Source: a virus (taxonomy: Duplodnaviria > Caudoviricetes). From it: DNA of 33,901 bases. Shown here one piece after another: positions 3,389 through 28,245 of this stretch. Position numbers and translations under genes: made by a program. The notes below the pieces were generated by a model, which saw nothing but the letters and a program-made list of their open reading frames with translations, was not told the DNA's origin and ran no database searches. The stretch is taken from the IMG/VR virus record IMGVR_UViG_3300025635_000093, positions 1-33,901 of that record, one strand, 5' to 3'. Position 1 is the first letter of the stretch, and each line of letters starts with the position of its first letter.

Positions 3389-3484
3389 TGTGAGTATATA
3401 ATAGCACACATCATGGCATTATTATAGCACTATTTATTTACTTTAATGTATGCTACTATATCTACGGATACAGAATTATCCACG

Positions 3485-10525: not shown

Positions 10526-10695
10526 GTGGTTATACTATCTTCTAATAATTCTTGCTGTTTCATTCTTAGTGCTTGGCTCGCCCTTAGAAGTCTATACCTA
10601 CATTTCTGCAACTTTGCTTTAATGAGGTGTTCTTCTGCACAAACACTAATATGTTCCTTTACTGCTTCACTATATTCTTTTATTTCTTTATCCAT
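10519..10695 (-). CDS. Hypothetical protein (58 aa), leaderless
   Basis: MDKEIKEYSEAVKEH..; ATG 6 nt after -10. Confidence 0.6.
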   Translation of the reverse strand: MDKEIKEYSEAVKEHISVCAEEHLIKAKLQKCRYRLLRASQALRMKQQELLEDSITTC

Positions 10696-10701
10696 GTGTA
10701 T

Positions 10702-10746
10702 ACAATAGCATGAGTAGGCTTACTTACAAAGTAAAACTGTGGATAA
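10702..10746 (-). promoter_or_regulatory. Promoter with operator and DnaA box
   Basis: TGcTATTGT -10 (10702-10710), AGTAGGCTTACT 10713-10724, TTATCCACA on - strand 10738-10746. Confidence 0.7.
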
Positions 10747-12100: not shown

Positions 12101-12182
12101 ATTATACCTCATTTAAAAATAAATCAAGCAAAATAGTTATCCACACCCCCTCACTATACAAGTAAGCATACTAGTGTATACT
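12101..12182. promoter_or_regulatory. Divergent promoters with DnaA box and operator
   Basis: - strand TATAAT 12101-12106; TTATCCACA 12137-12145; AGTAAGCATACT 12161-12172; + strand TATACT 12177-12182. Confidence 0.7.
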
Positions 12183-26142: not shown

Positions 26143-28245
26143 ATGGCTTTTAATCAACAAGAACAAGATATAATAAAGTTTGGCTTACAAAATGGTAAGT
26201 CTAAAGAGGATGTTATTACTGCTATAACTAATTTTAGAAGTGGAGTTGTACCTAAACCAGCAGTACCTAAAGAGCCTTCATATACAGAACAGTTAAAGTC
26301 AGATTTAAACACGAGAGTAGATAGAACTGGTGAAATATTAAAGAGGCAAGATACGCCTATAGTCGAGAAAGGTATTCAACTACTTGGTCAAGGTACAGGT
26401 TTAGCTGCTAATCTAATAGAAAAATCCTTTGAACAAATACCAGGGGTTAAGCCGTTACTTGAGAAGGTAGGTAGTGGTATAAATTGGTTAGCTACATCTG
26501 ATTACTCACCTGTGAAAAAACTAGGTGAGTCTATTGGTAATTCTATTGGTAATACTAAAGTTGTTGGAGATATAGTTGGATTATACGATACTGACCCTAA
26601 CTTTAGAGATACAGTTGACGCAATAGCTAATATTGCAAGATTAGGAATGGATATATCGCCTATTGCTGAAAGTCCTGCTTTTATAAGAAATGTAACTAAT
26701 AAAATATTAAATGTGGCAAAGACAACTGCTTCGGGGTCAGTAGACACAGCACCTTCTTTAATTAAGACCATAGACGAGGCATTTAATTCAGCTAAGGCAC
26801 TAAAAGATGACATACAATTAACTGTTGCTAAAAAGAATGTAAACCCACAACTGGAGTCGTCTGCGAATAGATTATTTCTTGATGGTACAAAAAGATTAGA
26901 ATCCCCAGTAGAGACTTATGATAAATATTTGGTTCAATCTAAAAAAGCTCTAGGGGATATTAAGGCAGACCCTGCAATTTCAGAAGTTGGTAGTAAAATG
27001 GGTGACGCTTTTGATACTGTTGTAAAACAAAGACAGTCTGTTGGTAAAGTGTTAGGGAAAGAACTCAAGGCAAATGGAAAGATTAAAATCGATATTTCAG
27101 ATACTAGAAGTAATTTACTAAATGAACTAGACAATAGCGGTCTTTCATATAGTCCAAAAACAAACGAACTTACTTCATTTCAAGGCTCTAGGTTTGCACC
27201 AGAAGAAGTCTCTATGCTTAATGATTTTGTAAAGAGCTTAAATACGCTAGGAGATAATCCTACAGTTTCACAAATAGATAACTTTATAGCAAGGACCCGT
27301 ACAACACTTGATTTTACAAAGGGTAAAAGCGGCGTAATGGGAACTACAAATGCAGAAAGAATAATAAACGGAGGTGTCGCTAAGCTAAAGGAGACACTTA
27401 ATCCTAGTGTAAATGGTAATACTGCACTATCAAAGTATTGGAGAGCGAATAATGCGTATTCAAAGCTTTCTGATTTTATAGATGAGGGTAGTACATTTCT
27501 AGGTAAAAAAACATTATCTGGAGATTATGCAAAAGACGCTAGTGTTGCTAAAAGCTCTGTTCAGTCTATTCTTAATCAAGGCAAAAAAGACTTTATGATA
27601 AAGTTGGAGGCACTTACTGGATATCCAGCAATAGATGACGCTGTGCTTGCATTACAAGCCATGAAAGACGCTGGAGACTTTAGAGGACTCTCATTATTAC
27701 AGGCAATGTCTGATTCAGGCGGTATACCAACATCTAAAGCAGGATTTACCCAGCAAATACTGGATTACACAGTCAAAAAGGGAGGAGAGTTTGTTGCAGG
27801 AACTCCAGAACAGCAGACAAGAGCCTTGCTTCAAGACCTATCAAATAAGGCACAAAGCCCTAAACCGATAAACACTAAAGCAAAACCAACAGCAAGTGCT
27901 GGAGATAAGACTAATAGTACTAACCAAATTAATAACCCCATGTCTGATACCATACCACAGAAAAAAGGTATAATCCAGTCAGCTGTGGATAAGTATAAAA
28001 GTATACCAAATAAGCAAGGAGGATTTGTAAGAATCGGAGGTAAGACATTTAAAGAAATACCAGAGGCTACAAAGAAAGAAATGATACAGGTAATAGACTA
28101 CCTTAATCTTAAACAACCATACAATAAAGCAATAGAGTATAATATATCTAAATTGCTACCAAAGTATTCTATAAGCCAAGACTGGTCAAACGCCAAGATA
28201 GCAGATACATTAGAAAAATTAGTAGAGCGTACTAAAACAAAATAA
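26143..28245 (+). CDS. Large internal virion/DNA ejection protein (putative)
   Basis: 700-aa helical protein following first ejection protein. Confidence 0.6.
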   Translation: MAFNQQEQDIIKFGLQNGKSKEDVITAITNFRSGVVPKPAVPKEPSYTEQLKSDLNTRVDRTGEILKRQDTPIVEKGIQLLGQGTGLAANLIEKSFEQIPGVKPLLEKVGSGINWLATSDYSPVKKLGESIGNSIGNTKVVGDIVGLYDTDPNFRDTVDAIANIARLGMDISPIAESPAFIRNVTNKILNVAKTTASGSVDTAPSLIKTIDEAFNSAKALKDDIQLTVAKKNVNPQLESSANRLFLDGTKRLESPVETYDKYLVQSKKALGDIKADPAISEVGSKMGDAFDTVVKQRQSVGKVLGKELKANGKIKIDISDTRSNLLNELDNSGLSYSPKTNELTSFQGSRFAPEEVSMLNDFVKSLNTLGDNPTVSQIDNFIARTRTTLDFTKGKSGVMGTTNAERIINGGVAKLKETLNPSVNGNTALSKYWRANNAYSKLSDFIDEGSTFLGKKTLSGDYAKDASVAKSSVQSILNQGKKDFMIKLEALTGYPAIDDAVLALQAMKDAGDFRGLSLLQAMSDSGGIPTSKAGFTQQILDYTVKKGGEFVAGTPEQQTRALLQDLSNKAQSPKPINTKAKPTASAGDKTNSTNQINNPMSDTIPQKKGIIQSAVDKYKSIPNKQGGFVRIGGKTFKEIPEATKKEMIQVIDYLNLKQPYNKAIEYNISKLLPKYSISQDWSNAKIADTLEKLVERTKTK
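27831..27941 (-). CDS. Nested antisense 36-aa membrane microprotein (superinfection-exclusion candidate)
   Basis: MGLLIWLVLLVLSPALAVGFALVFIGLGLCALFDRS, with its own promoter. Confidence 0.6.
   Translation of the reverse strand: MGLLIWLVLLVLSPALAVGFALVFIGLGLCALFDRS
27949..27992 (-). promoter_or_regulatory. Intragenic antisense promoter with DnaA box
   Basis: TTATCCACA-29nt-TATGGT (TG-extended)-7nt-ATG. Confidence 0.6.

Follow-up and report, generated by a model that had tools for sequence, protein, structure and literature searches.

A probable small membrane-protein gene lying antisense within a likely ejection-protein gene of a podovirus-like phage

The window analysed here is the whole of IMG/VR virus record IMGVR_UViG_3300025635_000093, 33,901 nucleotides (nt) in length. 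It is a complete virus record with a 127-base-pair terminal repeat and 35% G+C, and is a complete 33.8-kb podovirus-like phage. On its plus strand, a gene at 26143..28245 encodes a protein of 700 amino acids (aa) which is likely to be an ejection (internal virion) protein. Inside this gene, on the minus strand at 27831..27941, lies an open reading frame (ORF) of 36 aa encoding MGLLIWLVLLVLSPALAVGFALVFIGLGLCALFDRS. Positional homologues are found in 25 of 37 related loci. The minus-strand ORF (27941-27831) is very likely a real gene, probably a leaderless small gene whose product is a putative membrane protein.

The large gene falls into three parts. The conserved core (approximately aa 200-566; 26740..27840) ends in GTPEEQTRAFL, after which relatives stop or diverge. 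It is followed by a linker (aa 567-620; 27841..28002) made of K/N/T/P/S/A/I, which is the opposite-strand reading of the small gene and its promoter; an earlier first-pass annotation, made from the sequence alone, rightly described the plus strand as reading through here as a low-complexity linker. The C-terminal cassette (aa 621-700; 28003..28245) begins NKQGGFV and is variable among relatives; in others, Zeta-toxin-like or ADP-ribosyltransferase-like domains take its place. The ejection-protein call is based on gene order, after the adaptor and nozzle genes and before the fibre (the nozzle call, for a 504-aa gene, is by place and size only), and the large gene likely builds the DNA-injection channel of the phage. 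The 700-aa protein has no Pfam, PHROG, NCBIfam or PDB match. Atlas gives a lead, and only a lead, to a P22 gp16 domain (PF26808; score 0.87); a match to phrog_342 in 5 of 45 homologues, with the matched region unspecified, is a weak lead.

The 36-aa peptide has an uninterrupted 33-residue apolar run with Pro14 near its centre, and is predicted to fold as a helical hairpin. An in-frame ATG upstream, at 27953, would yield 40 aa; this start was rejected as the ATG falls within the -10 hexamer described below, and 36 aa is the likelier product. The ORF had been annotated as nested in-frame. It is indeed nested, but it does not match codon to codon; instead it uses the shifted antisense frame in which third codon positions coincide (the shared-wobble frame). 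In this frame plus-strand K/N is read as L/F, T as V, P as G, A as A, and serine encoded by AGY as L. Comparison of the window peptide with Pfam, PHROGs, NCBIfam and Atlas gave nothing convincing, and it is absent from a collection of 15 billion proteins.

A promoter-like site lies upstream on the minus strand. The layout originally reported is exact as given, with the box TTATCCACA (27992-27984), 29 nt, TATGGT (27954-27949), 7 nt and ATG, but a -35-like TGGATT (27977-27972) had been overlooked. The hexamer is part of an extended -10-like TGTGG-TATGGT (27949..27959), the plus-strand reading of which is a recurring 'TIPQ'. A 17-nt spacer separates it from the -35-like element (27972..27977), which in relatives reads TTGATT, TTGACT or TTGCNN. 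The box (27984..27992) is upstream of the -35 and reads V-D-K on the plus strand; it fits the DnaA-box consensus.

The window alone makes a weak case, because a K/N/T linker always casts a hydrophobic shadow. The rival explanation is that the K/N/T/P linker is selected for the plus-strand protein, the ORF is its shadow, and the codons for VDK and TIPQ resemble a box and a -10 by chance. The mapping between the strands is deterministic. Among the 40 antisense ATG ORFs that reach 30 aa this one ranks first in hydrophobicity, yet genome-wide synonymous recoding yields one or more equally hydrophobic antisense ORFs in 23% of 60 trials. The promoter-like site matches 7 of 12 consensus bases and does not appear in the list from a consensus scan; its score is equalled by 16 of 280 late-region minus-strand ATGs (top 6%), on an ad hoc sigma-70 score with author-set weights and with starts chosen partly with the promoter in view. 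These points count against the gene. When the 700-aa gene alone is recoded (3000 trials), the 36 codons stay open in 16% and are open with the ATG in 0.6%, which does not favour a shadow; 75% of the linker recodings that stay open reach a hydropathy of 2.0, which does.

The relatives supply the evidence beyond chance. In a protein search 218 homologues were found, 120 of them listed; among the matches listed, homologues share the core to approximately aa 566 and then stop, continue into a K/N/T/I/S/P linker, or carry another tail. DNA was taken for 44 loci and 37 were kept as non-redundant; L013 and L014 (core identical to the window) and L018, L019, L029, L034 and L035 (duplicates) were dropped before counting. 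An initial single-protein viral scan found one locus, L001, with an N-terminal match only, which was left out of the analysis; two further viral scans returned the same 10 contigs. A hydrophobic minus-strand ORF of 33-50 aa is present at the end of the same large gene in 25 of the 37 loci. It is nested in seven (L006, L007, L009, L016, L017, L021 and L026) and free-standing and convergent in 18, where it follows either a short tail (14 loci) or a long one (L004, L012, L025 and L032). A like ORF ends at the core end in 21/37 loci, compared with 6/819 upstream background bins, and is found at the end of the large gene in 16/33 loci compared with 1/48 other gene ends. On the other side of the balance, 9 of 34 assessable loci lack the small gene (three further loci end too soon). 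Alignment of homologous ejection genes had been expected to reveal a variable insert that keeps an antisense hydrophobic ORF and promoter; the ORF and promoter are kept, but instead of a variable insert the small gene itself is the linker.

Two side observations concern these loci. In L026 a second 35-aa hydrophobic convergent ORF (5664 onward, minus strand) follows another plus-strand gene; it is the sole case among the 48 control gene ends. In L023 (1257-1051, minus strand) and L030 (4202-3720, minus strand), an ORF of 68 aa and 160 aa respectively, with a hydrophobic N-terminus, lies one base ahead of the free peptide gene.

Free-standing copies lie in other frames relative to the large gene and mostly past its stop; hence the plus-strand protein cannot explain them. 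They also share a build with the nested copies. In 23 of 24 peptides (L044 was omitted from the comparisons of composition and co-divergence) a proline sits roughly midway along an extended apolar stretch, mostly of 28-38 residues, flanked by short polar ends; a helical hairpin is predicted on this basis. Nested L009 (MTASDLLIPILLGIFLSPVVGVIVFLFM...) aligns to free L041 (MSEMDVLICIVLGIFISPIIGVGLFLLM...), and L007, L009 and L017 match the free peptides better than 300 of 300 shuffles. The same comparison is less favourable elsewhere: for the window peptide 17/300 shuffles are as good, and for L026, L016 and L021 the figures are 16/300, 111/300 and 169/300, none of them significant. The family link of the window peptide therefore rests on its position, its build and its nested relatives. 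A profile of 23 peptides recovers six proteins among 1.84 billion; these are three known free peptides and three further relatives.

Codon usage and divergence point the same way. Linker serines are encoded by AGY in 23 of 27 cases compared with 54 of 235 in the core, although the test is partly circular as the loci were picked as hydrophobic, which favours AGY. AGY is needed in the linker because the antisense strand must give Leu rather than Asp/Glu. In a close relative from run X4 (possibly the same sequence as homologue P0002, and counted once), core changes are mostly at third positions; many in the linker are at first and second positions. In the close relative, 12 of the 37 linker residues are changed, compared with 98% identity in the core. 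Read by hand, the changes at 27837-27890 of the X4 relative alter the peptide by R>K, L>F, G>A, I>V, G>V and V>L and introduce no stop. The ATG is kept in place. Two codons beyond this ATG the plus frame meets a stop, which falls within the last 16 letters of one contig. The first-pass annotation had named a broken antisense frame beside a conserved linker as the sign of a spurious gene; the reverse is found, with the linker diverging and stopping and the antisense frame and ATG kept. The 18 free-standing copies outside any plus frame, the homology between nested and free peptides, the AGY bias and the fast divergence of the linker beside a near-identical core largely refute the shadow explanation, which is scarcely credible.

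The promoter-like site recurs with the gene. All seven nested starts scored lie above the 99th percentile of 241 background ATGs, and their -10 ends 7-8 nt before the ATG. Among the free starts, 13 of 17 are within the top 4% of the same background and several are near-consensus (for example L040, TTGATA-17-TATAAT); at the four low-scoring free starts another minus-strand ORF ends no more than 30 nt upstream. L006 and L043 were omitted from the test as near-copies. Across loci the ATG is 6-10 nt downstream of the -10, a spacing from which we infer a leaderless or nearly leaderless mRNA. Just 3 of 38 window starts have a Shine-Dalgarno word, so its lack before the small gene is normal here. It is probable that the gene is expressed early as a leaderless mRNA by a host sigma-70-type polymerase, which would act soon after entry and independently of the late transcript.

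A TT[AT]TCC[AC]C box is found 44-52 nt before the ATG in five of the seven nested loci; it is reversed in free L004 and L025 and occurs in forward orientation in 0 of 17 free loci. The TTATCCACA box was considered as a required part of the promoter and rejected, being missing from most free loci. It is an optional element of a type common to intergenic sites 3816, 7517, 10746 and 12137. TTATCCAC boxes cluster at 3476, 3816, 7517, 10746 and 12137, in intergenic promoter-like regions and in either orientation, and related genomes contain 2-9 similar boxes. The intergenic site to which the promoter had been likened (10695..10746, minus strand; comparison only) is exact as described, with the box, 30 nt, TATTGT, 6 nt and ATG at 10746-10695; in full it reads box, TTGTAA, 16 nt, TG-C-TATTGT, 6 nt, ATG. 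A 58-aa ORF (10695-10519, minus strand), below the 60-aa cut-off, starts 6 nt past the -10 of this comparison promoter and has no Pfam match. The palindrome AGTAAGC[C/A]TACT is present at 10713-10724 and 12161-12172, with one copy at an early-direction and the other at a late-direction promoter-like site; no repressor gene was recognised among the 43 ORFs scanned. The small gene's promoter had been said to lack this operator and so to escape repression. No copy lies near 27941 with up to two mismatches allowed, but the palindrome is a putative operator only.

The direction of the promoter raises an alternative in which an antisense RNA is the active product and pairs with the late injection-gene mRNA of a superinfecting phage, the peptide being secondary. 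The promoter points into the injection gene, and a consensus scan finds no terminator-like site 3' of the peptide stop (one at 27902 sits within the ORF). There is also a precedent in STnc6030, for which such an action has been proposed, described in the part of PMC7067206 drawn on here as antisense to an injection gene and as excluding phage BTP1. However, loci with little sequence identity still have in common the peptide length, the apolar run, the proline, the AGY bias and the spacing to the ATG, which indicates selection on a protein; the RNA alternative is very improbable. Equally hard to accept is a type I toxin of the Fst/Ldr kind, as part of an addiction module stabilising a non-integrating phage. 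The size, the hydrophobicity and an [SA]P-hydrophobic-G motif are like those of Fst/Ldr toxins, and an integrase was not found (see below). Against this, 23 peptides give no match to Fst or Ldr in Pfam at E up to 1, PF13955 has no match in five genomes at E up to 10, and the apolar run of approximately 30 residues is longer than in Fst/Ldr toxins. An ATG 6-10 nt after the -10 leaves no leader for translational silencing. Membership of Fst/Ldr was rejected for want of a profile match and of a long structured leader; an antitoxin RNA was not searched for.

Every nested copy occupies the same antisense frame, the only one in which the strand opposite a hydrophobic peptide is almost devoid of stops. 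Opposite the free genes, the shared-wobble frame is free of internal stops in 12 of 18 cases, compared with 1 of 18 for each of the other two frames; a stop in the shared-wobble frame arises only where the peptide has Tyr, His or Gln, which keeps this frame stop-poor. Free genes translated in this frame resemble nested linkers. The peptide stop is at -10 in free L023, L027, L030 and L041 and at -9 in nested loci; therefore, a single-base shift would turn the free state into the nested one. A protein-only shadow test agrees with the DNA state in 37 of 37 loci (901 control windows peak at 2.58). Among the matches listed, it was applied to 119 homologues: 41 are short, 14 read through and then stop, 30 read through and carry a long tail, and 34 have other tails. 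These classes include near-duplicates and, in P0015, a probable false call. On a core tree of 155 rows the nested state needs 13 changes, at least 8 of them forced by well-supported branches, and a single clade of the eight nested rows verified by DNA is rejected (p-AU 0.00087); two short rows were omitted from the trees. The core tree is unrooted and the gene recombines, so gain and loss cannot be told apart; the pattern fits recurrent read-through, recurrent truncation and the exchange of cassettes alike. We favour read-through that began from a free gene, because the peptide explains the composition of the linker and free genes occur across the tree. Ancestrally, the small gene would have stood alone, convergent with the last ejection gene and immediately beyond its stop codon. 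Loss of that stop, or a shift by one base, would take the large gene into the stop-poor frame and through the small gene, and in some lineages read-through would continue across the promoter into a cargo domain. This course of events is probable, and read-through, or cassette exchange at the core end, likely occurred more than once.

Beyond the linker, tails match Zeta toxin in P0004 and P0005 and ART-PolyVal in P0021 (above cut-off) and in P0049 and P0103 (below it). Zeta-toxin/ART-type domains are also found in non-nested tails (P0044, P0051 and P0077); nesting is thus one route to cargo and not the sole one. L006 and L007 have an identical core end and linker and different C-terminal domains, the switch falling just beyond the small-gene promoter; this is likely a recent cassette swap. 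The 80-aa cassette of the window resembles the tail of P0102/L032, where the small gene follows the cassette. In 44 of 63 long tails the variable domain comes after a word of the GGF/RGF/AGF/RGM type (a loose pattern, with no control), and the QGGFV-like word at the cassette start could be a processing or docking motif. Linkers vary in other ways. In P0006 and P0019 the linker is approximately 25 aa longer and its antisense reading is hydrophobic up to a TIPQ-like motif, which suggests a longer nested membrane protein. L003, L015 and P0015 have short linkers ending KGxGTIPEN, which keep a TIP-like word but no peptide shadow; the word may be what is left of the promoter once the gene was lost.

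The best explanation overall is that the product is a membrane hairpin which blocks DNA entry by competing kin phages; we give this a probability of about 0.5. The peptide would sit in the cytoplasmic membrane and jam assembly of the second phage's ejection conduit, in the manner of SieA or HK97 gp15 but unrelated to them. Exclusion by jamming of the conduit is a tentative proposal, argued from the position of the gene. Some of the evidence weighs against exclusion. The slot after the last ejection gene is a known moron spot in P22-like phages, and position need not mean target. Similarity of peptide and core is only weakly correlated (rho 0.28; 1/2000 permutations), and L016 and L017, with very similar cores (0.87), carry dissimilar peptides (0.21). 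Weak co-divergence argues against a strict lock, and the physical one-to-one lock between peptide and ejection protein suggested at first is not supported. A lysogen-expressed role like that of SieA has no support, as no integrase was found in the window ORFs and relatives scanned. A complex prediction for the C-terminal 206 aa of the core with the peptide scored 0.00 and has no bearing either way. As for SieA itself, its types are also reported not to be allele-specific.

The same observations suit a different role, in which a real membrane microprotein in a moron slot modulates a host membrane protein (receptor, pilus, transporter or protease) or the timing of lysis. Weak co-divergence of peptide and core is in keeping with this, as is the absence of the gene from a quarter or so of assessable loci (9/34). 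In L023 and L030 a short minus-strand unit ends with the peptide gene, which follows a gene whose product has a hydrophobic N-terminus, and the nearest Atlas cluster is a 37-aa transporter modulator, VraH, at 0.79, below lead level. However, whatever the form of the tail (short, long or read through), the small gene stays at the end of this particular gene, with 1/48 at other gene ends, and a host modulator is the unlikelier role. Exclusion remains the preferred reading. The most complete version of it is a family of exclusion hairpins of approximately 36 residues guarding the membrane against kin phages, with the gene repeatedly swallowed by the injection gene it targets, its stop-free opposite frame forming a bridge to interchangeable injected enzyme cargo, and the linker, conserved motifs included, being a shadow of the small gene and its promoter; as a whole, this version is doubtful.

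The remainder of the genome is consistent in layout. An early block on the minus strand, with an O-like initiator, Rad52-like and YqaJ recombination genes and HNH genes, faces the late block on the plus strand. The late genes are, in order, terminase, a 627-aa portal-sized gene, major head protein, SU10 adaptor, genes of 504, 87, 574, 700 and 281 aa, tail fibre and a LamG protein. Scanning of 43 window ORFs revealed neither an integrase nor a repressor, no tyrosine integrase (PF00589) matched in five relatives, and no serine recombinase (PF07508) matched in the window and four relatives. A putative lysis block (53-1922) has two small hydrophobic ORFs around ORFs of 275 and 171 aa; these ORFs have no family matches and no spanin-like gene was seen. 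The sequencing runs listed for the window comprise four DNA runs from freshwater or drinking water, two of which may be the source of this DNA, and no RNA run. A Patescibacteria host would be compatible with the scarcity of Shine-Dalgarno sites and the TTGACA/TATAAT type of promoter; the terminase matches are at 34-38% to Bacteroidota phages. Two scans of GTDB genomes found no relative, and the core had no tblastn match among GenBank phages.

The hidden gene is very likely real and its family new and unannotated; antisense nested genes and polyvalent injected proteins were already known. A literature search, which did not cover supplements, found no paper describing the family or the engulfment of a membrane gene by an injection gene. 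Gene callers miss nested copies, which can be found from protein alone by their signature of K/N/T/I/S/P linkers with AGY serines and TIPQ. If the proposed function is true, this would be an entry-exclusion protein far smaller than SieA, used by short-tailed phages of an uncultured host, and small enough for a synthesis-based test of how SieA-like proteins jam the conduit.

Several known systems bear comparison. HK97 gp15 and similar proteins are small moron membrane proteins, self-promoted and encoded among virion genes. Like HK97 gp15 (named in the part of PMC10883804 drawn on here), the present gene may encode an exclusion membrane protein; HK97 gp15 blocks the entry of DNA from related phages. 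Unlike it, the gene is not from a long-tailed temperate phage of the HK97 type, shows no sequence match and is often nested.

In P22-like phages, as the same sections of PMC10883804 describe, sieA lies between the homologues of gene 16 and gene 9 and encodes an inner-membrane protein, and escape mutations map to the C-terminal parts of gp16 and gp20. The family measures approximately 160-210 aa with 3-4 transmembrane segments, and 22 of 66 P22-like phages carry sieA, in highly divergent alleles. The present gene is similar in being a membrane gene after the last (here inferred) ejection gene, in having its own promoter, and in being patchy (25/34 loci) and divergent. P22 SieA differs in its 162-164 aa, its three transmembrane segments, its FxRYPxEAxxFNK motif, its expression from an integrated prophage and its place between genes (PMC10883804, same sections); here there are 33-50 aa, one apolar run and no integrase detected, and the gene is often inside the large gene. 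The small protein is approximately a fifth to a quarter of the size of SieA. The first-pass reading of a membrane microprotein gene that runs antisense, has a promoter-like site of its own and occupies a sieA-like place is supported, but homology to SieA was rejected: FxRYPxEAxxFNK is absent from the peptide alignment and no Pfam, PHROG or NCBIfam match names SieA.

STnc6030 of BTP1 is likewise transcribed from the strand opposite a DNA-injection gene, across its 3' end, and mediates exclusion (PMC7067206, in the part drawn on); it is a 786-nt non-coding RNA of a Salmonella prophage, whereas the present locus is a conserved coding frame inside the gene. Polyvalent virion proteins, in the sections of PMC5512222 drawn on, share with the large gene a late-region location, predicted injection and variable enzymatic domains, and ART-PolyVal and Zeta-toxin matches occur in homologue tails; a linker derived from an engulfed antisense gene is not met in those sections. 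Antisense nested genes are known from bacteria, for example ardD within tniA (a title cited in PMC8788219), and the resemblance lies in a coding frame fully antisense inside a gene of a mobile element. Such genes are usually read as new and overprinted; here the nested gene appears to be the older partner and the linker the new one, the reverse of the usual overprinting story. The natural series of loci, from free gene to slight overlap, to read-through with a stop, to read-through with cargo, illustrates how full antisense overlaps may arise.

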